A DNA stretch of 55,763 nt, the filler included, from Sphacelaria rigidula (Eukaryota): the NCBI GenBank assembly GCA_964200075.2. It is 6 parts of 6 records of this genome, joined end to end, with 100 filler letters (N's around TTAATTAATTAA, not from the genome) between each part and the next. Parts side by side here need not be neighbours in the genome. Positions count along the whole stretch, not along the records: positions 46,554 to 55,763 come from CAXNAA020009040.1; 5 more parts are not named here. One strand, 5' to 3'. Shown here in pieces: positions 2,693 to 55,763 of this stretch; position 1 is the stretch's first letter; every line of letters begins with the position of its first letter. The notes under the pieces were generated by a model. That model ran no database searches. It was not told the DNA's origin and was given only the letters and a program-made list of their open reading frames with translations. A program made the translations under genes and the position numbers.

Positions 2693-5600
2693 ATAGTAAA
2701 GTACCCTTCGTCTTCGTTACCAACGGGGGCGGTAAGACGCGTGTTTCGTGCGGATCAGTATGGGCAAATACAGTGCCGTAGGATGGAATGAGAGTGGAAT
2801 AAAATATTCCAACAGTCAGTATATGCACGCTCTTGTAACTGCGTACTATACGCCGAAAACGTCTGTACTCTATCCTGCTACAGCCCCGCTGCATAATACT
2901 GCCTGTAGTATCTCCACTCAGTGTCCCAATCCCTGCCCGTCTGAGCCCCCCCCCCCCCCACCCCCCGGCACTCGCCGACACCCTCTGACATTTTATCGTG
3001 CGACTGCTCTTTGTCGGTCACCAAGGCTGCACGGAACGAGAAAAGGCCGTAGAGCTCGAGAACCTTTTCGGGGTACCCGTGGAACGGTCGATGGTGGTTT
3101 TGTCTCATTCCCCGATGCGGAGTTTAACGCAGGAGCTTTGGTCGAAGAGGGTGTTGGTCCTCGGGTCGAAAGCGCACAATATCGCCGAAGAAGATTTGGG
3201 TCTTCGAGATACGGTTAGTCAGAAGTGAGGGGGTCCTCTGCGAGACTCGTTGATGCAACATCGGTCCTTCCAATCTATGGGAAGAGTTTTACAGTATGTT
3301 TGCGTGCTTGTTCGTGAGTTCGTCCCATGTTCGTCCCATTGACGTGCCAAGCAAGTTGTGATAAACGCGTACATGAGTGATGCCGGGGTAGCCCTCCGCC
3401 AAAACCCAGCCCCATAACTGTCGAGAAGAAAGTGACCATACAGCGCATGATAGGTTGTTTCGGATTGGATGCAGACGCCGCTTTTGGGCGACATTTGGAG
3501 AAGATGATCCCGAGCGTGGGAGTTCCCGGCTGCTCGGTGTGCTCGGCTTTTGTCATTTTGATGCACACGTAGATATTGCCACCTCGAACTCGCCACTTTT
3601 TTTGAGGTGGTTATCGCCGCATTACTCACACGACGGAAACAACTGATGAGAGTCCCATCTTGTGCAAATAATAATATATGTACCTTTAGTCAGCGTATGG
3701 AATCGAATGCAGGCAAGCATAGTTAGCAGGCAGTGCAGAATCGGAAGTCGACGGTAAGTATACTTGGGGATGATGGATGTTTGGGGGTGTTGAGGATGTT
3801 GATTGCGTTTTAAAAATACTATTTCGTGGCATTCAAAGGTACAGTAGTCGATACTAGAAAGCAAAATTTCTTGTGCAAGCAGAGTGTCACACCAACTCCA
3901 AGGTATAATTCGGCCATCCCGCGTATTCCGCATGTCTGATGAATTTTGATCAATTGGTTGTCCCCCCTTCATGATCTCGGAGGGATCCAGCCGTGGTCGC
4001 ATGATGGACGTTCCTGACATAAAACGAATTGGGAACACTCGCTGAAGAAAAGTGTGTGATGAAAGTGGGAAAAAAGAAAGCGCAGAAAAATGTATGATAA
4101 AACAGACGCAAAGAGTACACTGGGAAAATAAAAAGATGGAAGGAAAGGTGAAGGGAAAAATACAGGGTATTAGAAAATAGGCTAGACATAAAAATGGGCG
4201 GCCTCTGCAACATACCTTCGGTGAAAAAAAGGTCTTGCCCGAAAACCATACTCATACCCACTCGTGAACAAACAGAACCCCGTGGGAACATATTGTCGCT
4301 TATCTATTTCGACGTCACACTTTTGGGGTTGAAGCTCCCATCCATGAACCCCACAGGAGCTAGGCACCAAACTTGTACTCGTATACACCAAGAGGAAATG
4401 ACGGACAAGGAGACAGGAAGGTGGAGAAAGGAAGTGGGAACCAAAAAGGAGAACCGATGTAACCCGAAGGGCACAGTTGGGTAGAGCAGGTACGAATGCA
4501 CAAAAGGGAGAACCGCCCGCGAACCACCACCCAAGGACAGAATCAACAACCGGCAGGAAATGGCAGGGGTACGTCGGTGTCCGTGTCAGCCCAATTTCTC
4601 GCAGCCACTCCTAGTGCGGTACAAAGCAAGCCACTATATCGGTCATTGCCCTCTTGGATTCGTCGGGAGCTGTTGCTGTTGTCGTGCTATAGCGAGGGCA
4701 GTTAGTCGTCCGACTGGCGGGTCTCGACGCAACATCCTCTCATTTGTCTATCGATTGCTATTGAACGCGACGGTTTCTGTAGCATTCACAGTGTTTTACG
4801 ACAATTCGTTCTGAGGCCACTGTATGCCGCTTCGCGTGACGCATTTTGTTGTCTTTACTCGAACGTGTGTGTGTGGGGGGGTAAGGTTGCACCGGAGGAA
4901 TTCGCGGCGGAATGGCCGAAGCTGTTTCACTTCACGGGGGAGAAGTACTACATGAAGCGGAGCTTCCCAGATAGGTGCGCGCGCGAAGACTTGCTAGGGT
5001 GTCCGTGGCGCGAACAGTTCATGCTGCTGTGCAACTCTTCGACTTTGCGCTCTCTTTTCGACATCTTTGCTGCTATAGGGCGTTATCTGCGTCGGGGTTT
5101 CCTGTCTGTGCGCGGCTATCGCAGTGGTAAGCATGTGTTCAACTAACGATGGGAAAAAAAAGGTCATGTCCAGTTTTTTCGCAGAGGCGTTTTTTTTTTA
5201 GTCAAGGGTTCGGAAAATTTCCGAAACGGCCACGCACTCACGAGACCACGTTTTGTGGACCCCAACATGAAGCTTTTCGGTTGCTTTCTTTCTCTGTGCA
5301 CAATGCTGACACACGTATGCGGCGAAGGCACGACAAGGCGCCGAGGCCTGTCTCGGCCATTCTCGTTCTTCACGACCCATTGGATTGGCTGCTAGAGGCG
5401 CAAGTGGTGACCGATGTCCTCAGAGGAGGTGCGTGCGCGCGCGGTCGCATGTGCTTGTGTCTGAGCGTTACGAAACGCGTTGGGTGTTGCGTGTTGCGTG
5501 CTGCTCGTTCTGTAGTAGCCGCAGTACACTGTCGGTTTGACAGTCATCGTGTAGTTAGCCTCGCCCCTGTAATAGCGCAAACGCTGAATAGAAAGCATAC

Positions 5601-6619
5601 ATTTTTTTTTTTTGTGAGGGATCGCGTCAGTCCTAATCGTTGCACCGTGGCGCTTCCTCGTAGCAAACTACCCCAGGTCCATCACATTTTTTTATGAAGG
5701 TTTGAGAATTGTCGGCGGGAGAATGTGTGCTGGCTCCCTCACTGTGTTGCCACTGTTTCATGCGATAATGTCTGATATGATATCGATGAAACTTGTAATG
5801 TCGTTGCCTCTACAGGAAACCCGCCGGGATCAGGGGTTGGCGCCCAAACGCCTATGTATATTTCGAATCCGGATTTTTTGTTCGCGGCAGCGTACCCCGA
5901 GCCGAGATTCGCGGCGGTGAGTCAAATTTGACTTGTAATCTCGACCCTCTGTGGAAGAGTTCAGATTCATTTCTAGGCAGCGTCAACATGATGGGCACCG
6001 TATCCTACGATCGGATGGATCATTGCATGAACACACTGGGCGAAGCGCACCTCCGTACACGTTTTCATGCTTGCTGTTTACTCTCATAAGACGCTCGCGT
6101 GCGTGTGCTTCACACTCTCCGTGCGAAAATCGCAGCCGGGATGTCGAAATGTACGCAGCATTGATTGCCCCACGCCCTTACAGTGTATACATTCTCACGT
6201 GGCCACACAGTTTTCCAAATATCATTCAGTAATACGGTAGCTTTATATGCATTGAATGTACTGAAACTTTTTTGTACTCGATGCTGATTGCCGTCGGTCA
6301 CCATCACGAGGACAGCGCATCAGCTTCTTGCATCGGATATACCGCGCTCAGATCCTCACCACCAATCTGAACATCAACGCTTCGCGTGTAAATCAACCCC
6401 TCCCGTTGGGTTTGCTCTGCTGCGTCCAGGGCGCGTTCACTGACACCGTTCGCATGCTGTACGCCAAGCGGTTTGGAGACGGCGAGCCGACCATAGGAGT
6501 GTTCGGCAAACCCACCCCCGCGACTTTCGACTACGCGAGGGACATGTTGGACCGCAGAAAGGAGGCGATGGGGCTGTCGGAGAACGACGGCCCTCTCGAG
6601 AGAATTTACATGGTTGGCG
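2693..6619 (+). CDS. HAD-superfamily subfamily IIA hydrolase, CECR5/HDHD5-like (partial, 6 internal exons)
   Basis: Exons 2693-2731, 3026-3213, 4886-4974, 5328-5428, 5816-5916 and 6430-6619 join in phase at GT-AG sites. The product has PFVFVTNGGG...VVLSHSPM...ILVLHDPLDW...YISNPDFLFAAAYPEPRFAAGAF...FGKP...IYMVG, motifs typical of CECR5-type HADs. The N-terminal DxDG exon and the C-terminal DNP exon were not found within the fragment. Confidence 0.9.
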
Positions 6620-19384: not shown

Positions 19385-22300
19385 TTAGATGATATCCATC
19401 ACCAAAACGACGCCTGCCAACACCCACTTAGCTGTGGGTGCTTTGGTTCGGAGTCGGGCGTCGAGGACATAGGTGGGACCTCTCTGCTGAGTTTTGTACA
19501 CAGGACACCTGGGATGGATTGACACATGATATCGGGAGGGGCGGGAGCGGGAACCTGTTTGGACTAGGTTTGGAATTTTCTTATTGAATTATAGACATGA
19601 AGCCGCTAGCATTGGAGTTGTCGTGTAATCGAAAATAAATGGGAAAAATGAGGGGAGGGAAGCACGAAAATCGACACATACATCATACCCCGAGGCAACA
19701 AACAGCACATCCGTCCATGTAGTTGCCGTCCTACATCATGTCTCACATGAAAGTTGAGTTGTCCACCTTCGCACTGACCACCGCTACACAGTTGATAATG
19801 GGCATCGGGCAGTACATCTCCCTTGGCTTGGAACTCTCCAGATGTTGCGCCTGGTGAGCGACGGACGCGGAGTGAGAAATAACGCCAGTACAGTAGATTA
19901 CAGTACAGGTCGATGTGTCGGAATGATAAGAGTATTTTTCAGGTCTCGCTTCTACATACAAAAAATGGAATGTGTACATGGGGCTACGATGATGAGAATT
20001 ATCCGGACACAGGAATCACCTCCAGTAGTGACGAAGAATCATAATCATCACACGTGAAAGCGTGTACGACAAGGCAATACTTCGCATGAACATATACAGA
20101 TTTCCACGTAGCTTACGTTTCGATTGCTACTAGATCCTTGGGAATAAAAAAATATACCAAGGGCTGATAGTGGCACTATGACTCACTTCCCTCCGTTCTC
20201 CGCATGTTGGGCCGAAGTGCCTGCCGAGTTGAGCCTCGAAATGTAAACGGCAATTTTATATATATATATATATGTAGAGAGCATCGCAATGTCCGACACG
20301 AAGGCGATTTTACCTGTAGATTCCATCGAGCCCCGTCCAAACTCAGTCCATTGATGTACGCTCCCGTTCGGCTTGGCGCAGCGATGTCTGTGACGTCCAT
20401 CTTCGAGAAGGAGCAACCGGTGCATACACGATCCGGTACGGGACAAGCAATACGAGTATTAACCCTTAGCATTTGCGGCGCTTCTATCTGTCGAGTCGGC
20501 AATGTGTTCTCTCGAAAAAGACTGATAAGCTCAAGCATCCACCAGCGAGCACTCATAGAAATAAGGGGCCTGATGAACACGGTAATCGTTTCAGATTCGT
20601 CCTTACTTTTCCCGAAAAACTAGAAATTATTTCCGACTTTACAACCACAAAAAGTTTGGAAAAATTCCGATGCTATTTTTCTGGAGAGACATGTAGTCAG
20701 TCTTAGATTGATCCACTGCCTGAACTGGTTGAAAAATCTTCCCTCGGTTATTTGGAGATCCCCCCCCCCCGTCTCGAAAGGGATGCGTGGTCAATGGTCA
20801 AATGACTAAGGCAAGCAACAAATGAGTACCCCCCCCCCCCCCCCCACGAGTACAATAGTCAATGGTCTGATGACTATGGCATGCATGATCATGAGTACAC
20901 CCCCCCCCTCACGAGTACCCCCCACGAGAGCACAGGGATAAGGTTACCAGGAGAGCGGGGAACGAAGGACTTCCTCGTAGGGAACATCTATATGTCCCCA
21001 GAACCGAAGAGTAGGGTGAACGATATACAATGGAGGTTTGAAGAGATAGCAGCAGATGTACCTAAGTGTAAAAGGCAAGGAGAAGTAGTGTTAGTGGGAG
21101 ATGTGAACGCAAGGGTAGGAAGATCAGGTCAACCGGATGATATCATTGGGCAATACGGGGAAGATAAGAAGAACACGAATGGGGTAGAAATGCTGAGGTT
21201 TCTCGAGCATAACGAGATGAACACGCTGAACGATAGAGCACGAAAACCAGGGGCGCAATGGGCATTGATGAGGAAATGCAAAGACAAGAGAGAACGTTCC
21301 GTTCTGGACTATATAGTGGTAAAGCATGGGAATGCCAATAAATGGAAGTAGAAGTATGCTCAGAGGACGTGGTAACCACAGAGTATTGCCTAATATGGAC
21401 AGGAAGCCAACAGACGGGAACTAAAATACTCAGGCGGGGTAGGAATCTGTACAAATGGAGAATCGATGAACTAGATGCGGAAGAGAAACGGCAACTGTTC
21501 AAAGAAGAGATGGTCAAGAATGCAGTGAATGTTTCCGAGCTGTTGGAACGCGTAGGCACAGTTGATATCGGAATGGAAAGAAATCGGGCATGAGCGAAGA
21601 TTATAGAAGGGTGGGGGCAGTTGATCAAGAACCCAGCGAGTAAAGTCATAGGAAAGAAACTGATCGTATGCAACAGAGCAATAACATCGTGGGCTGAGGA
21701 AGTAAAAGAGGCTATCAGAGTAAGGAGAGAGGCCCACGCGAGATGGGTGTCGAGAAAAAGTACGGTAGGATGGGAGGAGTATACTAAAGGTCGAAAGGAA
21801 GTTAAGAAGATGGTACAGAAGAAATAAAAAGAGGCTATGGGAACATGTAGTGGAAAAAACAAATGAAGATTTCGGTGGCGGGATAAAACAAACAAATTTG
21901 GGTAGGGATAAAAGGTATTACGAGAAATCAGGCAGGAAAGATGGGCATCGGGATAGCCACACTCCGGTCACAGAACGGTAAAACGGTCAGCAATTCGAAG
22001 GGGAAGAGAGAAGCGCTCGTTGAGCACTGCCGTAAACTGGGAACACCAGAAACAACCATGAACTTCGACACGGAATTCGAAAAAGAGATCAACGCGTGGG
22101 CAGAGGTAAATGTAGAGATGTCCAAATGGGAGGATAGAGGCTCGAAATAACTGCAGAGAGAGTTCGCCAGAGATGAAGTAAAGGAGGGCGTAGCTCAATT
22201 CAAGAACAAAGAGTCAGCAGGGGCAGAAGGAATAGTGAATGGATTTCTCAAGTATGGGGGAGAGGAAATTATTACAATGATGGTTATGCTATATAACTGG

Positions 22301-42982: not shown

Positions 42983-45900
42983 TCCTTCCCCCAGCCTCGA
43001 CCTCGAGCGCCGAGGCCGGGTTGGGCCGGCTGACAGTAGCGGCCCAAGGAAATACGCAGGATTTCGGCTAGTACGGAGAATCAGTGACACCCACTGCCAA
43101 ACTGCTCCGTACCACAGCTACGTGATTCGCACTGTCAAAGTGACACCGTACATTTGCTGCTTCACGGCGATGATATCGGAACACACCCTACCCCTGCCGG
43201 CGGGGGCCGGTAATCCGTCTGACCATCGCCACCGCCGAAAGCATTGCTACCGTAGCTCTGAGAGCAGACACCGGCGTGCATGGAAGCACAAAGGTCAACT
43301 TGGTGGAGGTCGACGTGCGCGGGATCCGCTGAACCCCGCGCAGGAACAACGAGGCATGAGCCAGAGTAGGCAGAATAGTGCGTGGAAGCAGAGAAAAGCC
43401 CACAAACGCTGGGTCAAATACCAACAGGAAAGGGGCATAGCAAAACGAAGGAAGAGAAGGAGGAAAATACCAGCCCGGCGAGTCGCCAAGGGTCATGCTC
43501 GCGCCCGTCGCACCACCGCAAGGGCGGAGTTTTGATCCAAAGAGCTGGTGGTGGACACTTGGAATGTACGCACTATGACCGAGAGAGATTCCAACAGCAC
43601 AGGCCACGCCGGGGACCTGCCGCTTTTTGCATACAGATGCAAGTGTGATTTCGTCGCCGTCCAAGAAAACCGGCGCGATGGGCGAACAATCTTCCACGCA
43701 CCGGCAGCAGGGTACGTCGTTCACTGCAGTGGCCACTGCCATAGAGACGGGGGTAAACCGGGAATGCTCAGAGTCGGTCTCGACGTTCGTGAGCCTATCG
43801 CCAGCACGCTGGGCCCAGAAGCCATCGCCCCCGAACACGTGAGTGCTAGGATCCTCAAGGTACGAGTTGCTTTCAGGCATGGAGTTGCAACAACCTTCAT
43901 CGTAGGGTATGCTCGTACGAGACAGCACAACGTGCTGAAAAGACCAAGTTCTGGAAGGCCATCAGTAGTTCCATCGCAAAAGTGCTCACCAACGAGCACC
44001 TAGTACTCATGATGGGTACCAATGCTCGTACCGGAAAGAGAGAAAGAGGAGGCACGGATGACGTTCGGGTACTGGGAGAGTATGGCAGAGACACCCAGAA
44101 TGATAATCGTAGACGCCTGCTGAAATGCGCTGCTGAACACAAAATGGCCATCACCAACACATTTTTTCGCACACCAATGCGCGGGGAAAGCTCGACCGCA
44201 TACACATATGCGGGGCCGAAGGCCGAATACCGCTGGCGCCTGGACTACATCCTAGTACGTCAGCAAGACCGCAGACTCGTCCGAAATGTCATGTGCACCC
44301 CGATATGAAGTTGAACCATCGTCTGATGTCAGCCACCATCCTCCTCCTCGGACGCAACACTCTCAACCGCCAATAGAAACCAAGAGGCGGGGATAGGAGA
44401 GTGCGTGTCGACCGTAACGCACCCGACCGGCGCTGGAGAGCGACTGTTTCATTTCACAGGCCATTGTCGCCAAGCTTCCGAATGTCACAAATTCCCCGCA
44501 GTAATGGACATCAACGACGTGGCATATACCTCCGCCGACGCCCTGCGACGAACGGCCGAGGATACACTCTTTCGATGCCCCAAGAAAACCCAATCTAAAG
44601 GTTTCAGTGAGTCAACTCAAGCTCAGGTTCGTCTCCGGAAGCCGTGGGATCCCAGGGGAAGTGTGTGGAAGAATCTGCGAGCAAACCCGAAAGACGCTGT
44701 CCTAAAGAAGGCGCTCAAGGTAACGGACAAAGCGTTCAAGCGGGTGAAGGATGCTGAGCTGCGGAACTTCGTTCACGAGTTCACAGTCCAGACCGCGGAG
44801 TTTGTTCGCGAGAACGATCAAGCAGGATTGTACCAGCATGTCAAGTCCTTGGGCCTGTAAGGGAAAAAACAGAGCGACTCAACTTACATCAGGAGCACGA
44901 CTGGCGAGCTGTTGCGGCACGAGCAAGCTATCCTTCAACGATGGAAGGAATGCTTCGAAACACTGCTGAACGCAACCCCACCTACGATCGGCCACTCTGT
45001 CATCGATCTCATCAAACAGATGCCGGAGCACGCACCACTTGCGGCGGAGCCCTTGACGGCAGAAGTGAAGGAAGCGGCGGGCAAGCTAGCAAACGGCAAG
45101 GGGGCAAGGCCGTTGAGACGGACAACATCTGTGGCGAACTATTGGAGCTCGGCCGCACCGAAGACTGCCATTCTGAAGTGCCTACACAACATCGTGCTCG
45201 CCGTGTGGCGTCAGGAAGTAGTGCCGCAGGAATGGAAATACACCATCATGAAAGTGCTTTTCAAGAAACAGGATCCGCACGAATGCGGCAACTACCGTGG
45301 TATTTCTTTCGGATCTCACGCGGGCAAGGTGATACTCGAGATAGTCGCGACTCGCCTCAGCGCTTATTGCGAGTCAAAGGGAATCCTCCTAGAAGCACAA
45401 CGCGGTTGCCGACCTGGCCGTTCCACAGTCGACATGATGTTCGTTGTGCGCAGGCTCCAAGAGCTGGCCAGAGAGAAGAATGTTCCTCTGTACATGAGCT
45501 TCATCGACCTCCAAAAGGCATACGACTCAGTGGACCGCTCTCTTCTCTGGAAAGTTTTAGCACGCTACGGTATCCTCGCCAAGGTAAGTTCCATCATCCG
45601 CTAATTCCACGACGCCATGCGGGCATGCTTACGCCTGGACAGCGGCGAGACATCTGAGAGGTTTGACGTAAACGAGGGCCTCCGCCAAGGATGTGTGGTT
45701 TCCCTCGGTCTGTTCAACATTTTTTTCGCGGCGGTGCTGACAGTAATGTTCGACCGCTTCTCGATCAATAAGCGGTGGTGCAACACTTCATCCGCATCGC
45801 TAAAAGGGGCGGGAAGACCAGGGATGAACTCAGGAAAGTGCTCTGGGCTATGCTATACGCCGACGACGCTGACATCGCTTCGCGGTTCCGGGTAAGCCTG

Positions 45901-46453
45901 GCAAAGATGATGACGGCCGTCGCATTCGGTCTCGTCGTCGCGGAAAAGAAGACGATCACCATGAAAATGCGCTGTCCGAACGTGGAGACGGATGCGATCG
46001 AGGTGGAGGCAGCGTGCCAAAGATACAAGCAAGTTGATTCGTTGCTCTACCTTAGCGGGAAAACCAGCAGCATCGGTGAGGTTACTCCCGAGATCCACAG
46101 CTGCATTGGCCAGATCTGGACGTGCTTCTACAAATCGGTATACGACAACCCGTACATCGCCCTCGCCACCAAGGTTCGTCTCCTAACGACTGAAGGGATC
46201 GAGGTAATGCTGTACGGCTGCGTGACCTGGACGACCGCACACGACAATTTCGGTGCGTTACGGGAGGCCCATCGAGGATTCCTGCTGAGGTGCCTCAGTA
46301 AGCATACCACGAGATCCTCGAACGAACTAGCTGCGAGTGCATTGAGGCTGGCGTGATGAAGCGAATCCTCCTGCACGCGGGCCGCGTTGTGCGCATGCAC
46401 GATGAACGCCTCCCCAACATCGTCATGCGTGGAGTCATGGTTGGGGGGAATAT
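42983..46453 (+). mobile_element. RTE-clade non-LTR retrotransposon, near full length including 5' region, decayed
   Basis: APE: TWNVRTM, DFVAVQE, GTNARTG, ITNTFF, LDYILV. RT: CGNYRGIS, MMFVVRRLQE, FIDLQKAYDSVDR, GLRQGCV, LYADD. Downstream LYGCVTW and ERLPNIVMRG. Frameshifted and cut by the fragment end. Confidence 0.93.
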
Positions 46454-46553
46454 NNNNNNNNNNNNNNNNNNNNNNNNNNNNNNNNNNNNNNNNNNNNTTA
46501 ATTAATTAANNNNNNNNNNNNNNNNNNNNNNNNNNNNNNNNNNNNNNNNNNNN

Positions 46554-46642
46554 TTTGTGGCTTGGTTAAATTAGGTGACCATGGCGCAGGCATCCCTTTC
46601 GAGACGGAGCACCGTTCCTACTCCTACTAGAGACACCTCCAA
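46554..46642 (-). repeat. 3' fragment of family A LINE
   Basis: GCATCCCTTTCGAGACGGAGCACCGTTCCTACTCCTA matches the reverse complement of 24590-24640 and 20771-20790. Confidence 0.8.
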
Positions 46643-46645
46643 TCG

Positions 46646-46861
46646 TAGGGGCGGGGGGGTATTTCGGGCCACTCTTGCACGAAATTCCTAGTCAAATCGT
46701 GGTCGAAAGCAGTAACGGTTATTCGAATGCGCTTGTCATATATAACGCTCATTCATACTGCTTGACACCATTTTTAACCCAACACCAGCGCACCGCGAGT
46801 GTGGCAGGTCTTACGACCCACCTATGAGCCTTTTTTTCGTGCAATCAAATACCCTCCACTA
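46646..46861. mobile_element. MITE with TAGGG...GGGTATTT / AAATACCC...CTA ends; the right end of a second copy lies at 27934-28014
   Basis: Imperfect TIRs GGGTATTT..TGCACGAAA and TTTCGTGCA..AAATACCC. 46790-46856 aligns with 27936-28000. Confidence 0.65.
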
Positions 46862-46980
46862 GGTAAGGTTCCAACAGCGTCGAGAGCTCAACGGAACAGA
46901 TCCATCTTATGCACTCGGGGTTCCACTCTTTGATGTGTACCCTGTACAAGCTCAGCTCAGTTCAACCGCCCACCGCCCAG

Positions 46981-47105
46981 GCTCACAGCCCGTCCTGAAT
47001 ATCGAGAGAAAATACCCCTCTTTGGAGATCCTTCGACAACTGGGCTACGACAGCGACCTTCTTCAGGAACAAACGGAGATCATCAGGGCCGCCCGCAGTA
47101 CGTAG
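46981..47105 (+). CDS. Candidate terminal exon of an unidentified gene
   Basis: cccag|GC TCA CAG CCC... gives SQPVLNIERKYPSLEILRQLGYDSDLLQEQTEIIRAARST*, with GC3-rich codons. No upstream partner in the fragment. Confidence 0.45.
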
Positions 47106-47829
47106 TCATACCGTAACTACTCCAATGAAGTAGTGAAAATATCATTTTTTTCTCCCGGTTTCAGCCGGTGATGCATCTCTTCATATTTCATTCATTACTT
47201 TTTCCTCGAGACACATTTATTTCTTCAAATAAACGTCATCAAGGAAGGAAAGGCAGAAAAACAAAGTCTCATTTTACGAAAAACATCAACTTTCAGTCAC
47301 CGCAATATTTTGCGCACGTATAATTTTCTCGATAACACCACACAACACACATAGTCGTACAACAGGCGCTGAGTTTCCGGGGGGGGGGGGCATCCTAGTT
47401 ATAGCTGGAAAGCTGGTGAACAAATTGGATGGGCTTATGTCGAGGCCATTCAACTCATCATGGTAGGCGAGCGTCACCGCCGCCCCCCGCGCTTCAATCG
47501 AGTACACGTATCGCCATCCCTGCGCGGACGAACGCCATGAAGGGCAAAGGTCCTTACGACAAAGCAAAGCGCGTGGCCGACCAATAAACAAAAAAGACAA
47601 AGTCCTTGACCGCATACATACAGCGATACAACCACACCCTGTATAATTACCAGCAGTTCTTACCGTTAAGCCATATACATCATGTATGTAGCGACTTCCG
47701 TTCTATCTTCCCACGCATTACTCATTGAAATCATAACACATTTGCACTATATAAAAAAACATATTGGGAGCGTTCAATCCTCGCGTTTCTTAGCGCCTGC
47801 GTGTGCGTGTGACTGTATGCAGCAGAGCA

Positions 47830-48146
47830 CTGAGGGGATCTACGCGAACCTGGCGATATAAATCCATGGTTGACACACTTTTTTTTTGTCAAAAACCATA
47901 ACTCTAAAACCCTAACCCCATCTCAAACCCAGGCAGAGTATCCTCCTGCAAGTGGAATACATCCAGTGCCCTAGGCACAGTGTGCGCCGTTTGGCCGATT
48001 TGAGCCTTAGCGCTGTGCTGCGCCACGCTGGGCGAGCCGTTGGGACTGTGAGCCCTTTCTGAAAATACGAAATATAACCGTCCACACTAAAAGCAAGTTT
48101 TCGTCAACCATGGATTTTTATCGCCGAGTTGGCGTAAACTCTACTG
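47830..48146. mobile_element. MITE (~315 bp) with ~40-bp imperfect TIRs
   Basis: TACGCGAACCTGGCGATATAAATCCATGGTTGAC vs GTCAACCATGGATTTTTATCGCCGAGTTGGCGTA. Confidence 0.75.
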
Positions 48147-48472
48147 ACACTACTACTGGACATGCCGTGCTTGGGTTGCCACCCACTTAGTGTACGCACG
48201 CTTGAATCAAACTCTATAAAAGTAACGCAACCTAGCACATTCACGAACGACCATGAAAATCAACGTTTCAAACAAATCAAATTTCCCGAGCTTTGGTGTG
48301 TCCACGCCCCCCCCCCCCACGTACGTCATCATGTTTGCACATGCAACAGGCATAAGCAATGCTTACATTTTTTGTACCGTCTCCGAATAAGCCCCACCAC
48401 CAATCCAAGGCGGTGAAGTATAAGACCCCTGATAAACCTTGTTTTCCACGTCAATATTCTAGGAAAGCAAGA

Positions 48473-48738
48473 GACAATTTCTACGATAGCCCCCCCCCAC
48501 CACCACCACAAAGTGCTTTGTTTGAGGAGATTTCACGTAAAATCGAAACGAAATAAGCTGAGCATAACGAGCAGTTGGGAATTCCCACGCTTGGGTTCGT
48601 TCCCGCCAATGTCGCTCATATGAGGTGCTTCATGCAGCCTGAACCCAAAACATCAGGCGCTGGATGCCCATTTTTTCGTGACACTTTTGAGCTGTTTTTT
48701 TTTTGGGTGGGGTGGGGATGGCTATCGTAGACAGTGTC
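48473..48738. mobile_element. MITE, 266 bp, termini GACA...TGTC, 4-bp TSD AAGA
   Basis: TIRs GACAATTTCTACGATAGCC-C-run and G-run-GGCTATCGTAGACAGTGTC. AAGA at 48469-48472 and 48739-48742. Confidence 0.8.
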
Positions 48739-51111
48739 AAGACTATACCCCCCCCCTCTTCTACCTATTCCGAAATACCCCTTTCTACACAACGCACAAC
48801 CCCGACACGATTACATGAACGACACAAGTGACCGCCACAATATTCTCCTTCGACATTGGAATGTATACGTCGACAGGCTTGTCACTCTGTGCCACAAAAA
48901 CGATAGGTGGCGCACCCCCATAAAAGAGACGACGGTGGAGTCCATGAGATCGGTGGGGAAACAATCTCTCCCGTACACCAGTCTGCTGCACAATTTTGAC
49001 GACAGTGCCGCAGCTCAATTTTTCATGCTCCAATATTTAGATAGAATGAGCTTACTACAAGCGCCCCATTCCTCCCCTCGTCCCCCTCGATTCTTCATTG
49101 CCTCAGTTCAAACGATACTCCCAGACTGTTTTTCAGACTAGCTGCACGAGTGTCATGTGCATGCCTTTTTTCAAGATGACAACAGCTGACAAGGCGAAAT
49201 CAACACATTTCAACTCTTTTTCACTCTCCATTCCTCATGAGGTTCTTCAACTGAGAAAGGCCAAGTGAAGTGAAGTCCACATCTATTTGCGGAACGGTCA
49301 CCATCGAAAAAGGCAGGACGCCATACCCCTCATCATATGATGTATTTGAATAGTCGATAGATATTTCCCGCGTCGACAAACGATTGTAACCAAGAGCCAT
49401 GATAACAAAATAGACAATCCTATTCCAGTTGTCCGTCACTTCGTCGCACTTGGCGTCAACATATATATATATATATATATTCCTAGGTTATGTGGAGCTG
49501 GGGGGAAAAGTTACTCTCCTGTGTAGGACGCCGTATTTCAATCAATCCTCTGAATACCACCTTCAACTTCTGATTACTTTCTTCTTTTTTCTAGACATTC
49601 CTAGAGCACCTCACATGTACCGATATCGACTCAAAAGCAGCGACAGAACCATGGGTAGACAAGACGAACAGTTGTCAACTCTGAAAAATCGAATTGAGCA
49701 AAGTGGCGGTGAACAGAACGAGGAGGGGATAATGGGGGGGGGAGGGGCGAAGCAATTACCACATCGCCCCATCGCTTCTTGCTCATGTGCTGGATCTGTG
49801 CCCTACAGAGGAGATGAGTGGAAAAGCTGCCGCTCGCTGAAACACCACCATGCAGATATACATCAGGAACATTATATACATATTCGTGTTGCTGTACTGT
49901 AGGTTGATTGCCTTGTTCCTCCGAATATTGTTCCTCCGAATACTGCATACTTTCGCGAAAAACATGCAAAATTTCTTCCACCTTTCCCCTTGTTTCGAAC
50001 TTGACCAACGCAGCAATAAATGTATGAAACATTGGCTTCTTGCTCAGATCACACCGCAACTTCCCCATCCCCCCTTTCCCACGAGGCAAAGATTGACCTC
50101 TCAATCGTTCCACAACTCCGCACATACCCCGTATCCTCGTGGTGGGGGCGGGACGCTCGACCAAGAGTCACTGCCGCCTATAGTACACACCCCTATGCTG
50201 CCGAGAACATGCGCCCGGGTTAACACAACACACAGAAACAAGTAGCAGCAAAACTATCCAGTTGCAGGCATACGCACCACGGTAGCAGTGTTATGCTCGC
50301 TTCCGCACAGATTCGTAAGGCCGACATGTAGCAGGAGTTCCACACCGTCGTCTCCTGACTGCATGAAACTGCACGTGCGGAAGGTAGGGGAGGAGGCAGG
50401 GAGAAACGAGCTTCATCAGCCTCGCCAATCGCATGCAACCGCGGGCACGGGGAGCATTTCCTCCAGCTCGTGATCCGGCGAGTGCCCAATGAAGCCCCCC
50501 TCGCGTCGCCACTGTCCGTCTGCGAAGAGATAGCGATGCCGTGGAGGCGCCGGTCCCACCTTGTCGAAGCATCGCTGACAGAGGTCATAGTCCGGGCAGC
50601 TCTTGCAATGATATCTAGGGCCGCAGAAATCCTGCTGCCCGCTGCGGTGTTTGCCGTGGAACGGAGTTGGGTATAAATAGGCGGCAAAGGCACGGTTCAG
50701 TCGATCGAGGTTTCAGGGGATGTGCAGATGGATTTGCTGCGGTAGTGTGGGCCTCGTGCCTGTGAAGAACAGGCTCCTCTCTTGTACCTCGATGCTGTGA
50801 TTACACAAGTCAGGTGTGGGAATGAAACGGCGGGAAAGTAAAGACGAGAAAATGGCCAGAAAAGACAACCGACTGCTTTCAAGGACAGGAGTGGGGTCAC
50901 TGGATGTAACTCATATCTCGAATCGATCGATAAGTCACAGAACTGGACCCGTTCGTGACGTTCGCTGAACTTACTTTTCTTGTTTACGATCCTAAACTAA
51001 AGGATGGATAGAATGTGCTGAACAAACGCGGGGGCTAGCTGCATAGTTGTTCAAAGTACGGGATAAAATGCAGCTTAGCGTGGGGGATTCGTGTGAAATC
51101 GCACTTCTTAC

Positions 51112-51945
51112 CAACTATCGCAAATGAATGCCAGATGCCTCCCTCTCGCCACATACTCCAGAGTCTCCCTCGCGTTGACATGTCGCCGTTGGTCATGGGC
51201 AATGCGCGCACGGAATCCTTGATAACCCAAAGACTCGCAAATCTCCACCACTTGCGGTAGCTGTAAGGCATGTTCGCGTAGAAAATACAACAGATGTAGG
51301 GCGTGAAGGGGATATCGCAGACGTTTCATCGAAGCATTCAACACAGTCATCCTCACGTCACAACGTGGAGAAGCGAACGAAGGAGCGTAGAAGAAGGTTA
51401 TTACACTTTGCTCAGCAAAAAAAGCAAGAAATTTCCCTCCCCGCCATGCCTGCCGACAGTCGCACCGCAATTCGGCCACCATTCCATGTCTTGTGTAGTG
51501 TGGTCGAGGAGACATCCCCAAGAACGACGCAAACAAGGGCCCCTTCCACATAAGTACACACATACCTTGATGAGATGAACGCGCCCTAGCGGGCCCTCTC
51601 CCCGCAGTAGTTTCCGCATATCCTCCACCAACCCCTCCGTCATCCCCCCGTACATCCGTCGCACTAACGCCTGCCCTCCTCCTCGCACACCTGCCCCATC
51701 CCGACGGTAGAAGCAAACAGACGAGCCTGCTGCCACGCCGAAGGTTTCCAATGTTAGCGTCGTCGAGGTGACCTCGGTCGGGGCCTGCCGTCGTGACCGT
51801 TTCGCTGACGAGCAGTGCCGGTCTGCTTTTGGACAATCGGCAAACCGCTTGTACTTGCCAAATCTCCTGGTGGGAGGAATTAAGGCGTTTGTACTGTTTT
51901 TTTTCGTCGAGCAAGGGTGAGCGGTGTGGGCCCTTAAGCCGTCAC

Positions 51946-51976
<31 letters not shown>

Positions 51977-54900
51977 ACTACTTCTAATCAACAGGTTGGC
52001 CCTGGCGATGGAGGTCGGCGTCACGTGGCCCGATAAAGCCAGGTGTGTACCAAACGAGCCGTCTGGCAACACAGGCGATCTTTGTGTCTGTTCGTCGGTG
52101 TGCAATATCTACATGACAACCAATGCCAACGAGCAACGGCGGAATGTCAGGACGAACGCGCACGCAGGTAACCAGGCATGAGGGTGGGACGCGTGAGCAG
52201 ATAAAAAACGAACGACCGATATTGAGAATATGTTGGGCGTTTTCTTGACGGCGCTTCGGGAAAACACGGCGACAAGAAAAAACAAACAACCTTGTCCGTA
52301 CACAACTATCGGTGCTCGCCTTTAGCAAAATCACCCCGCCTATTTTGGTTGCCAAAAAATCCAAGCAAAGTAGAAGTAGAATCTCCAGATGGAAGACAAA
52401 AAGATGCGGGACTCAGGTACTGTAGGGTGAGTTGTACAGATGAGATGCGTTACCTGGCTGCTGCGAACATTTTTATACCATACTCGAAAAAGCGATTTTG
52501 CGTGCAACGGCTTCGTGCGATTTCGGAGGCAGTAAACGGTGGGCGGCCACAGGAACGGCTTGCCGCCCAAGGGTGTCCGAGCGAAAACAGTCAAACAGAA
52601 AATCAGAGAAACCGAAATTGAACCGTTCGAGTTCCAACACAGAAACCTTTAAAATAGAGGGACAAACGTCAGCTCGATGCTGAAGGTACGATTTTCCCGG
52701 ATCGTCCTACGCGGACAGCCGACCGATTGGTCCACCTCAACTGATCTGTGACAACAGGTCATGTCAACTTGAGTAACCACATGCGGGAGTATAACGCGAT
52801 GGCAAAAAAACTGGTGTGGGGAAAAAAGAGCAAAGGGCAGTACATCTTCCGTACGGCTACTTCCTACGAACCGTCGCTGCGTGTCCTTACCTTCGCTGGC
52901 TTCTGACCATTCGAGCCGTCTTGCCACGCGCAGGGCAAATCCTCTAGATACGCCCCTAGATCCTCCGGCCGTGTGCCGTCACCGATTTTATCCGCCGCCA
53001 GCTCGAAAAGCGCTCGGAGCGGGCTACTTGACCGCAGGATCGCGTGGGTCAGGTACTCGGGCCCCCTGACGCTACATCGGCTCCCGCTGCCAACAACACC
53101 ACCACGGCCACCATCCTCGTCACCGTCATCTTGTTGCCCACCGATCTCTCCACCTGTAGCCCCCCCGCGATTGTATCCAGTCGTGCTGCTTTTGAGTCCG
53201 AGCGTCTTCAGGAAAACCAAGATGCGCTCCTGTTTTGGATGTCGATTCTTTTCTGCCGAGCGAACATCTTGATCCCCCTCGCTTGAGCCCATCGTACCAT
53301 CTTCTCCCAGTGTAATCGGGACCTTTGGATCTTCCTTTGCCTCCGTGTCCACCACTGCCAGAGCCACCGATGGTTGCCCGCTACCCCTGTCCGGGTGAAG
53401 CGGTGCCTCGCCGCCGGCTGCTCCCCACGCCAATGGTTGTTGCATGTCCCACCGGGGCATATCGGTCATGCAAGCGAGGCGGACGCCACCATAGAATTCC
53501 TGCGCAATCACTGGCGGCGACGGCGGCTTCCCAATGTCGGTCGACATCGGCAAGCGCGGGTGGTTCTTCTCAGCTTCCCAGAAGCCGCCGTCGCGACGCT
53601 GCTCGACCCAAAGTCTTACCCTGCATGTATCGTCCACCATGTCGCCAGTGAGGAGGCGCTGGAGGCTCGGAGATTCCTGCCCGTCGTCGATGGCGCGAAC
53701 TGGCAAGTTATCCGCGCTGAAGAAACACGATAGTGGCAAATGTAGGGCGTCAGGGATGACAGTCAGGGAGGAGGCAGTGAGAGAAACATACGATTGAAGA
53801 CTCCTGAGCGTGTTGAGCGGCGCGTTTGGTGTGCCCCCATTTGGTCAAACTTTGTGTGGAGATGTGACTCTTTTTGTGTATCGCTCAAATAAAAACGTTC
53901 AAGTACACATCCCAGGCGTTTCTCCATGCTCCCCAACGATCACAAGCGAAACAGTAAAGACCTGCCTATAACCAACGGAATAGACGCAAATCGAAATCAT
54001 TGTACGAACATGTCAAAACCACAGCAACATCCAGAAACTCTTGCTCATACACGCACCTTAGGAGCTCCCTAGGCGCGAGGGGAGCGTCTGTCACCGGCTG
54101 GGTGATCACCCACAACCTGATGTCGGGCGACTCAACGTCATCACCGAGTACGCGCGCTACCATTTTCTCCAGCTCCTCTAAACTTGTGCACTGCAAAACT
54201 TCTAAAGTCAAGCACGGCAACGATCCATCGCAACGGGTAGTTGGACATTTTTTCTTGGACTTTTCCCCGTCATCACCCCCACCCACGTCCTCCCCGCCCA
54301 TTCCTCGGCCATCACCCATCCGCTCTTCATCTGCAGGTGGACTACCAGCAGCCGAACCACCCGGCGGACCCCCATCGGCGGCGGCGGCGGCGGTGCCACC
54401 GCAGCCGTGTGAATAGTGTTCCGGTTTCTGATCCGCTTGAACGTTCACGACGCCGAAGCCACGGTGAGCTGCGAGGTCAGCGGTGGTGTAGATATGCAGG
54501 ACGAGGAATAGCAGTCGGACGCGGAGCCTAATGGTCAGGCTTCCGTCACCTTGCAAAAAACCCTCCTGGGGGTTCTGTGCAGCAGTGGAGCGAACGGGGG
54601 GGGGGGGGGGACGAGGCGACGCTCATAGTCACCCTCTACAGCCTGCGGCGTGAAAAACAACATCCCAAGGTCATGTCCACCTGCTCTGAAAAATATCTAC
54701 GGGTCCAACACAAAACAATGACTAGGGCAACGTTTGTGCAGAGCATAGTTTCATCGCACCGCAGGGTACACAAAAAGGACCGGCCTTGTTATCCTGGCCG
54801 TACAGTACATGTACCCGGAATGGCAACACTAAATACTTCGACAACGTCATCACGACAATACCCGTCACATGACACGGCGCAGTCAGGTTACATCACGTAC

Positions 54901-55635
54901 CTGCATAATCGACGTTGGCAGAAGGCAGTGGACTCCCCAGCTGCTCCGCCCCGGATAAAACCGATCACCATCCATCGACGACACCCACGTCACGTTCTTC
55001 CGCCCGCCCTGATTGATCGCCGACAAGGAAAACGCGGCGCAGCATTCCCTGCTTATAACCGCCTCATCCCCGACGTGTGAGCAAGAGGCATATGTAATCG
55101 CCCGCCCTTCCCGCCTCCTAAAGCGGCGCCGGCGCCTCCTCAACCCGTGCGGATCCCGCCTGACAATCGATCCAGCGCCCCATTTCGACGGTGGTGGCGG
55201 CTGCTGCCGAGCAGCTCCACTTTCTGACGCCGACACCAGCGTCTCGGCCACTACGTTGAACATCTCATTTTCGACACTATCCCCTTCTTCGCTTCCGTCG
55301 TCACCCTTCATCTGGGCTCCCTTTGCTGCGTTTTTTACTTCGATATCCGACTCCGCGCCGTCAGATTCGGGAGGTTCGCTCCAAGGATGGCCCGGACCGA
55401 CTGGCAATGGGGGTGGCGGGAAAGGATGCGCAAACGCGAACCCCTCGCCCCACGGTGGCGTGTTCGGCAGCTCCTCGGGAAAGAAGACACCGAGATAGAC
55501 CGACAGGCCTTTCTCGATGCGGGCGCCCCCGGCGGCTTCTGCTTGGTCAGCAGCGCGCGGGTTGCCGCTAGGGTCGGCTAGGAGCGTGAAGGAGTAGCCG
55601 CAAAGACGGAATGGTGGGAAGTAGCGCCTGAGGGA
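51112..55635 (-). CDS. USP7/UBP12-related protein: MATH(TRAF) - Ubl - Ubl - UBA-like, with no intervening C19 peptidase domain (partial)
   Basis: Exons 55635-54901, 54574-54057, 53716-52891, 51784-51566 (acceptor less certain) and 51260-51112 join in phase. MATH: YFPPFRLCGYSFTLLADPSGN...LSVYL...AAFSLSAINQ...DRFYPGRSSWG...NPQEGFLQGDGSLTIRLRV. Ubl1/2-like: LEVLQCTSLEEL...IRLWV, ILVFLK...YLTHAIL...LRALFELAADKIG...LGAYLE...TLETFGVAAGSSVCFYR. UBA-like: VVEICESLGYQGFRARIA...NARETLEYV. Confidence 0.75.
51947..51977. repeat. (CTG)n microsatellite
   Basis: Tandem CTG. Confidence 0.9.
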
Positions 55636-55671
55636 CTGGTAAAAAGGGGGGTGAAAATGGGAGACGCGTGC

Positions 55672-55745
55672 GGGGGGGGGGGGGGGGGGGCAATGGTTGT
55701 TTGCCTTAGTGGCTTGCCCTTTGACCCCGCATTCCTTCCGGGATG
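55672..55745 (-). repeat. Degraded 3' end of family A LINE next to a G-run
   Basis: G-run followed by TTGTTTGCCTTAGT...TTGACC.CGCATTCC resembles the reverse complement of the family terminus. Confidence 0.6.
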
Positions 55746-55763
55746 GGGTAAGGGGGGGGGCGG

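Follow-up and report, generated by a model that had tools for sequence, protein, structure and literature searches.

A candidate F-box protein of Sphacelaria rigidula with USP7-type MATH and Ubl1-Ubl2 domains, a ZZ finger, and no ubiquitin-specific peptidase domain

The DNA analyzed here, referred to as the window, is a stretch of 55,763 nucleotides from Sphacelaria rigidula (GenBank assembly GCA_964200075.2). It consists of 6 parts of 6 records, joined end to end with 100 filler letters between each part and the next; the last part, positions 46,554 to 55,763, comes from CAXNAA020009040.1. On its minus strand, positions 50416 to 55635 hold six exons of a gene whose predicted product carries a MATH/TRAF domain followed directly by the first two ubiquitin-like domains (Ubl1 and Ubl2) of the USP7 type, and a C-terminal ZZ finger. 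We regard this protein as a likely substrate receptor of the Skp1-Cul1-F-box (SCF) type, built of the USP7 MATH and Ubl1-2 domains without the protease, plus the ZZ finger.

Gene structure and encoded protein parts

Contigs from four public runs (X1, X2, X5, and X8) were aligned to positions 46600-55763 of the window. The exons listed in Table 1 are connected by five splice joints (50641>51112, 51260>51566, 52108>52891, 53716>54057, and 54574>54901), all of which read CT..AC on the plus strand and hence GT..AG on the coding strand. Each joint is seen in one contig per run in the RNA-like runs X1, X2, and X8, which represent two studies, and in no contig of the DNA run X5, where contigs span the introns unbroken. 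We consider X1, X2, and X8 to be transcript-derived because five canonical introns have been precisely removed in them. The joined exons form a single open frame of 998 codons with two terminal stop codons (50418-50413). Low-complexity stretches are retained within the spliced contigs and are therefore coding sequences, not hidden introns. In each of the RNA-like runs, a contig extends 30 letters past the acceptor at 55635, beyond the window sequence; translated by hand, these letters continue the frame (NVDELGGDDE ahead of SLRRYFPPF) and resemble the orthologs in that region. The 5' exons are located beyond the window end, and the locus represents the last six exons of an expressed, spliced gene.

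Much of this structure had already been read from the sequence alone in a first-pass annotation. The exon limits that it gave (55635, 54574-54057, 51566, and 51112) are exactly the splice joints of the X1, X2, and X8 contigs, and its placement of further upstream exons outside the window agrees with the contigs that run past 55635. The long low-complexity insertions that it noted within the domains are those kept in the spliced contigs. The gene extent that it proposed, 51112..55635, was exact in its coordinates as exon limits and too short as a gene, as there is a sixth exon with the stop codon below 51112.

Table 1. Coordinates of the exons and other features of the MATH-Ubl-ZZ gene in the S. 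rigidula window
Feature	Position	Strand	Details	Basis
Exon A	54901..55635	-	Phase 0, 245 codons	Splice joint and loose end at 55635, translation, family-profile match, ortholog alignment
Exon B	54057..54574	-		Splice joints; family-profile match
Exon C	52891..53716	-		Splice joints, frame, profile mapping
Exon D	51566..52108	-		Splice joints, frame, profile mapping; helix from models of relatives
Exon E	51112..51260	-		Splice joints, frame
Exon F, coding part	50416..50641	-	Stop codon 50418-50416	Pfam ZZ match, frame
MATH-Ubl1 junction	54509..54520	-		Spliced product mapped onto the profile
Unspliced stretch on the exon F contig	46613..50415	-		Contig pieces 46613-50641 (X1) and 46602-50641 (X8)

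The protein parts were assigned with a profile of the family, which was built from 15 members and includes no window sequence. Exon A encodes the MATH domain from its second strand on (FRLCGYSF, LSVYL, CCAAFSL, SSWGVH), split by a low-complexity insertion of ~150 residues, and its match to the profile (5e-34) covers positions 125-227. The initial strand of MATH, like all of the protein before it, belongs to the exon(s) past the window end. Exon B continues from the final strand of MATH across the junction into Ubl1, of which it encodes the first two thirds. The first-pass annotation had described the end of MATH running straight into Ubl1 within this exon, and the peptides that it quoted were recovered on the minus strand in one open frame: the MATH end NPQEGFLQGDGSLTIRLRVR leads directly into LLFLVLHIYTTADLAAHRGF, with LEVLQCTSLEEL...IRLW further on. 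The Ubl1 portion itself consists of LLFLVLHIYTTADLAAHRGFGVV, an insertion, and then LTLEVLQCTSLEEL...IRLWVITQP. By itself, exon B matches profile positions 230-334 at 5e-30, which overlap the part of the profile that is aligned to USP7 residues 563-798. In the spliced product, the last profile-matching MATH residue is 264 (54520-54518) and the first Ubl1 residue is 267 (54511-54509), both in exon B; the same two points of the profile correspond to residues 195 and 563 of USP7.

In exon C, Ubl1 is completed (SPSLQRLL...CRVRLWVEQ), and Ubl2 begins after a long insertion, with ERILVFLKTLGL followed by another insertion and then by YLTHAILRSSSPLRALFELAA...YLEDLP. Exon D contains an insertion whose poly-Ser run (51937-51993) is a site of contig breaks, along with the last strand of Ubl2 (LTLETFGVAAGSSVCFY) and a long helix (ALVRRMYGGMTEGLVEDMRKLL). 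Exon E encodes three short helices, which form a unit, and then the Cys pair with which the ZZ finger begins (HLAFICDSC, with the last codon split by the intron); exon F supplies the remainder of the finger (GPRYHCKSCPDYDLCQRC...HRY...GHSPDH) and runs through the C-terminus to the stop codon. Insertions are present in MATH and in both Ubl domains and account for over half of the MATH-Ubl region; thus, Ubl1-2 spans 595 residues in the window product versus 236 in USP7.

Downstream of the gene, the X1 and X8 contigs with exons D to F continue unspliced for ~3.8 kb after the stop codon. The X2 contig is broken at 48602/48617, and one X2 contig has a loose A run after 48498. There is no open frame of at least 180 amino acids within 46613-50415, a stretch that is either a 3' untranslated region of unusual length or the product of overlapping transcription or of read-through into a neighboring transcript.

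Orthologs and the relationship to USP7

A search with exon B alone retrieved a 1,026-amino-acid protein of Scytosiphon promiscuus (P0003) at 4.8e-24. With P0003 as the query, five more proteins were found, namely those of Ectocarpus (P0005) and Undaria (P0006), two EukProt models (P0004 and P0007), and a fragment (P0008). The spliced product is 39 to 48% identical to P0003-P0007 in long aligned blocks and 62 to 71% identical in shorter conserved blocks; another fragment, P0012, shows 94% and 84% identity to exons E and F, respectively. The spliced product fits the family profile in one stretch (positions 125-630) at 8e-161. As this match and that of exon B (5e-30) are to a profile built without window sequence, the assignment to the family is beyond chance at the sequence level.

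A search among 1.84 billion representatives yielded 960 proteins at E≤0.001. In a set of 157 collected proteins, 108 in addition to the two window peptides match the family outside the ZZ finger, the remainder sharing only ZZ. When relatives with names were sought with a profile, 56 proteins were retrieved, and all those with an organism name come from oomycetes, namely Phytophthora, Pythium, Globisporangium, Lagenidium, Aphanomyces, Saprolegnia, Thraustotheca, and Nothophytophthora. Their annotations comprise, among others, “hypothetical protein,” “ZZ-type domain-containing protein,” “Ubiquitin carboxyl-terminal hydrolase and/or F-box protein,” and “Ubiquitin carboxyl-terminal hydrolase 12.” The family is thus found in oomycetes and brown algae, in the form of uncharacterized or misnamed entries.

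These orthologs bear on the reading of the locus as a decaying pseudogene or an assembly artifact with junk in the form of low-complexity insertions, a reading that might be suggested by the sheer share of the MATH-Ubl region taken up by insertions and by the retroelement and the run of N's nearby. The orthologs also have insertions, and at the same loops. The frame stays open over all six exons and 998 codons, the introns are precisely removed in three runs from two studies, and the conserved blocks are all intact, including the full set of zinc ligands, which makes decay or misassembly a very improbable explanation.

When the family profile was compared with the PDB, full-length human USP7 was matched at E=1e-27, isolated Ubl structures at ~1e-17, and the isolated USP7 TRAF domain, which is the best MATH match in the PDB, at ~1.5e-10. 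Profile positions 106-248 align with USP7 residues 66-195 (MATH) and positions 251-501 with residues 563-798 (Ubl1-2), so that two profile positions stand in place of ~367 USP7 residues, which constitute the entire catalytic domain. The same relationship is seen in the AlphaFold model of P0003, made with 56 alignment rows (mean predicted local distance difference test [pLDDT] score, 71.9; predicted template modeling score, 0.75; pLDDT of >90 in the domains and <50 in the insertions). The ten best PDB matches of this model in Foldseek are all USP7. In VIA-align, its residues 389-871 superpose on USP7 559-795 with Z scores of 17.2 to 18.1 and root mean square deviations of 2.7 to 3.3 Å over 216 to 226 residues, at 15 to 17% identity. 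Both Ubl domains of the model superpose simultaneously, and their mutual arrangement is therefore predicted to be as in USP7. The MATH part of the model (112-398) matches the USP7 TRAF domain with a Z score of 12.0.

Pfam searches were less uniform. In P0003, the end of MATH_2 was found at 1.8e-5, below the cut-off. Among 20 more distant relatives that were scanned, 10 had USP7_ICP0_bdg (the family that covers Ubl1-Ubl2, the “ICP0-binding domain”) at E≤0.01, and it exceeded the curated cut-off in two, P0043 (2e-13 and 50.7 bits, the best match) and P0081 (28.5 bits); most of these 20 distant relatives without long insertions also show F-box-like, MATH_2, and ZZ. Over the 56 rows of the alignment of relatives (A3), many of which are fragments, MATH_2 and ZZ were detected in 34 rows each, F-box-like in 22, F-box in 17, and USP7_ICP0_bdg in 11. 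The ubiquitin-specific peptidase family (C19) was detected in none of these 56 relatives at E≤0.1, nor is there a USP peptidase entry in the precomputed Pfam lists of the relatives; the families of the USP7 C-terminus (Ubl3-5 and the C-terminal activating peptide) are absent among the 19 Pfam families listed for the 56 relatives.

In the predicted protein, MATH is thus joined directly to a USP7-type Ubl1-Ubl2 with no peptidase domain between them. The first-pass annotation had proposed just such a fusion without the catalytic domain, and the resemblance to the USP7 Ubl domains holds both for the family profile (E=1e-27 for the whole USP7 chain) and, with an Ubl1-2 fold Z score of ~18, for the model of the Scytosiphon ortholog. 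Judged from its domains, the protein cannot be a deubiquitinase, because it has no ubiquitin-specific peptidase domain. As the 5' end of the gene is outside the window, and some relatives are named “Ubiquitin carboxyl-terminal hydrolase 12,” one could imagine a domain-shuffled, active deubiquitinase with the catalytic domain encoded in upstream exons. However, complete orthologs have just ~110 to 140 residues before MATH, which are occupied by the F-box; the peptidase family is missing from all 56 relatives and from the precomputed lists, and the names seem to be automatic transfers from the similarity in MATH and Ubl. An active deubiquitinase of this kind is hence highly unlikely.

The family probably derives from a paralogue of USP7 from which the catalytic domain and Ubl3-5 were lost and to which an F-box and a ZZ finger were added. 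As USP7 occurs across eukaryotes, and the named members of the family are all from stramenopiles, loss of the protease and Ubl3-5 is the simpler direction of change.

F-box, ZZ finger, proposed function, and surroundings

All four brown-alga-type orthologs with a complete N-terminus, as well as many distant relatives, start with an F-box. In P0003, Pfam F-box-like is found at positions 37-79 with an E value of 1.2e-6, above the cut-off, and the precomputed Pfam lists contain PF12937 in P0003-P0006, i.e., in 4 of the 6 proteins P0003-P0008. An F-box with an LPxE start and a trailing Trp was recognized in P0003-P0006, P0018, P0021, P0022, P0025, P0029, P0030, P0037, P0062, P0067, and P0117, and family-profile positions 29-104 match the F-boxes of FBXO3 (1.6e-10) and GID2 (4e-9).

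The ZZ finger is the part most easily seen in the window itself. The first-pass annotation had suggested that HLAFICDS could start such a finger, and Pfam ZZ indeed matches the window frame 50416-50712 at 5.7e-8 (32.9 bits, with a cut-off of 21.4); the finger is split by the intron 51111-50642 and completed in the sixth exon (50641-50416). The corresponding match in P0003 is at 4.5e-11. The window product has all eight zinc ligands (six Cys and two His), each of which is found in at least 94% of the family rows; three Asp residues of the finger (CD...DYD) hardly vary across the family, and the window has all of them (conservation was counted over 159 family rows, in which oomycetes are over-represented). 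Among the proteins found in the representative search, many unrelated ones (such as P0032, P0041, and P0135) have ZZ fingers repeated in tandem, with 18 copies in P0041.

Between Ubl2 and the finger, the model of P0012 has a long helix (133-158) and three short helices (171-180, 185-194, and 200-208), followed by the ZZ finger with a β-hairpin extension. Its fold searches match ZZ only, with Z scores of 6.6 for KCMF1, 6.3 for PRT1, and 6.1 for BIG, and with BIG, PRT1, p62, and HERC2 in Foldseek. The UBA-like helix bundle of the first-pass annotation corresponds to the three short helices, but the UBA label is unsupported: no Pfam family was found in this segment at E≤10 in exon E and four relatives, UBA_HYPK appeared weakly (0.054) in one of the 56 relatives, and the fold searches, filled by ZZ and single-helix matches, returned no UBA rows, although the three-helix unit was never searched alone.

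From the N-terminus, the product would thus comprise an F-box (known from the orthologs), MATH/TRAF, Ubl1-Ubl2, the long helix, the three short helices, and the ZZ finger. In the favored SCF substrate receptor, the F-box would dock on Skp1-Cul1-Rbx1, whereas MATH, Ubl1-2, and ZZ would hold a substrate for ubiquitination; we infer both Skp1 binding and ligase function. A more far-reaching version, in which a stramenopile SCF receptor evolved from a former USP7, turning a deubiquitinase into a writer of ubiquitin, and the ZZ finger makes it an SCF-type reader of N-degrons, appears doubtful; no description of an SCF-type N-degron reader with USP7-derived modules and ZZ was found in the literature.

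The first-pass annotation left the choice between a substrate adaptor and a decoy. In the latter case, the protein would be a scaffold rather than part of a ligase; it would bind through MATH, Ubl, and ZZ, compete with USP7 or sequester its partners, and either lack an F-box or use it only to tether Skp1. A decoy would fit the nature of the two USP7-derived parts, which are both binding modules, the location of the N-terminal coding part beyond the window, and the lack of a detected F-box in P0007, P0008, and many database relatives. Yet the relatives without an F-box are mostly short or cut models, and those with a complete N-terminus do have one; direct competition for the same ligands is also weakened by the loss of USP7 contact residues (see below). 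Accordingly, we see a decoy as unlikely, and of the two original proposals, that of an adaptor has gained ground.

Several observations weigh against an SCF receptor with USP7-derived modules. The F-box of this gene is probably there, judging from orthologs, but would be encoded outside the window, and support for it comes from 4 of the 6 close proteins and 22 of the 56 A3 rows, with many fragments among them. The link of the window's own peptides to USP7 is indirect, through the family profile and the predicted structure of an ortholog. Pfam searches of eight window frames returned ZZ only, with no MATH or USP7_ICP0_bdg and with all other rows at chance level; a brown-alga-type profile with two window peptides found ZZ but reached USP7 just at E values of 0.16 to 0.26 and only at the MATH end, with Ubl not reached. 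A phmmer search of P0003 against the PDB likewise gave ZZ and weak F-box rows and no USP7. The long insertions are the likely cause of this weak direct match in the brown-alga-type sequences. Fold alone leaves MATH tied between USP7 and SPOP, although the sequence profile separates them. The labeling of X1, X2, and X8 as RNA was a guess, for which the spliced joints are the sole support.

The ligand-contact residues also count among these points. In the MATH groove motif (DWGF in USP7), Trp and Gly are kept in all 96 rows, with Phe replaced by Val in 86. The position equivalent to USP7 D164 has Asn in 62 of the 96 rows and Ser in 23, that of the window among them, with Asp in a single row, and the acidic Ubl2 positions D758/E759/D762/D764 are F/G/A/S in the window. 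We take D164 and these four residues to be ligand contacts of USP7. If these positions are right, the ligands of the family would differ from those of USP7, and because the ligand-holding residues are mostly changed, substrates shared with USP7 cannot be assumed.

Elsewhere in the window, there are remnants of mobile elements. A non-long-terminal-repeat retroelement remnant (43536-46505, plus strand) has endonuclease- and reverse transcriptase-like regions that are split among several frames; positions 44861-45601 match Pfam RVT_1 (3.5e-12), and a run of N's lies near 46400-46450. A second retroelement fragment (20806-21348, plus strand) stays below the cut-off in its match to Pfam Exo_endo_phos_2 (endonuclease-reverse transcriptase; 4.9e-5), and strong GC and AT skews of alternating sign are present in the surrounding 13-25 kb. 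Positions 46600-46905 and 48436-48741 have very high summed contig depth in all four runs (up to ~234,000 in X5), and many contig joints connect them to 55670, which suggests that these are short, highly repeated elements that flank the gene. Finally, positions 5131-5694 (plus strand) weakly resemble the AMP domain of DIP2-like proteins in Pfam (2e-4, 21.8 bits versus a cut-off of 27) and may be an exon of another gene.

Comparison with known systems

The F-box of the family resembles those of known F-box proteins, such as FBXO3 and GID2, both in the profile comparison and in the Pfam F-box-like and F-box matches of the relatives. Among the literature listings and the opening parts of abstracts, no F-box protein with MATH, USP7-type Ubl, or ZZ as the substrate-binding part was found. 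An F-box receptor with a USP7-derived binding module would therefore be an architecture not previously described in the literature that we found, even though database entries for it already exist. Names such as “Ubiquitin carboxyl-terminal hydrolase 12” for proteins of this family are wrong. The principle behind such an architecture is not new, as the ubiquitin system abounds in shuffled domains.

By sequence and by fold alike, the ZZ finger best matches the ZZ-type readers of N-termini, p62/SQSTM1, PRT1, BIG/UBR4, KCMF1, and HERC2. In p62 and HERC2, the Asp residues of the finger hold the N-terminus of the ligand, and the nearly invariant zinc ligands and three Asp residues of the family, all found in the window, are a further likeness to these readers. 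In contrast to them, the finger of this family is extended by a conserved stretch of ~25 residues, which separates its last Cys pair from the His pair (HRY...W.R...F.GH...H).

With USP7/HAUSP and its counterparts, plant UBP12/13 and yeast Ubp15, the family shares the MATH/TRAF and Ubl1-Ubl2 domains, which are homologous by profile, and in the case of Ubl1-2 also by fold, as well as their order, MATH, Ubl1, and Ubl2. It differs in that the catalytic domain (about residues 200-560 of USP7) is reduced to two profile positions, in that Ubl3-5 are lacking and Ubl2 is followed in the models by helices and ZZ, in the F-box that precedes MATH in the orthologs, and in the mostly changed ligand-contact residues. 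The family appears to be a clear natural case of the targeting modules of an enzyme being reused without the enzyme, with the protease excised cleanly between two β-strands, and with MATH and Ubl1-2 kept as a single unit and placed behind an F-box. As such, it makes testable what the noncatalytic domains of USP7 do alone.

SPOP and the plant BPM proteins, which combine MATH with BTB and serve as adaptors of CUL3, are similar in that MATH is coupled to a cullin-docking module, and the MATH fold of the P0003 model matches SPOP with a Z score of 11.8. No SPOP chain is present among the 60 rows shown of the PDB search with the family profile, which places this MATH domain nearer to USP7 than to SPOP by sequence. 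No BTB family was found in any Pfam scan of the window frames or the relatives, and MATH is directly followed by Ubl1. Docking would instead proceed through the F-box, to CUL1 via Skp1, from a position N-terminal to MATH, and the family has Ubl1-2 and ZZ in addition. Should the protein act as an SCF receptor, stramenopiles (Phytophthora, Pythium, Saprolegnia, and Aphanomyces among them) would have a MATH-based CUL1 adaptor, for which we know of no counterpart in animals, in fungi, or in plants. The closest analogy for its proposed mode of action would be SPOP, but on CUL1.

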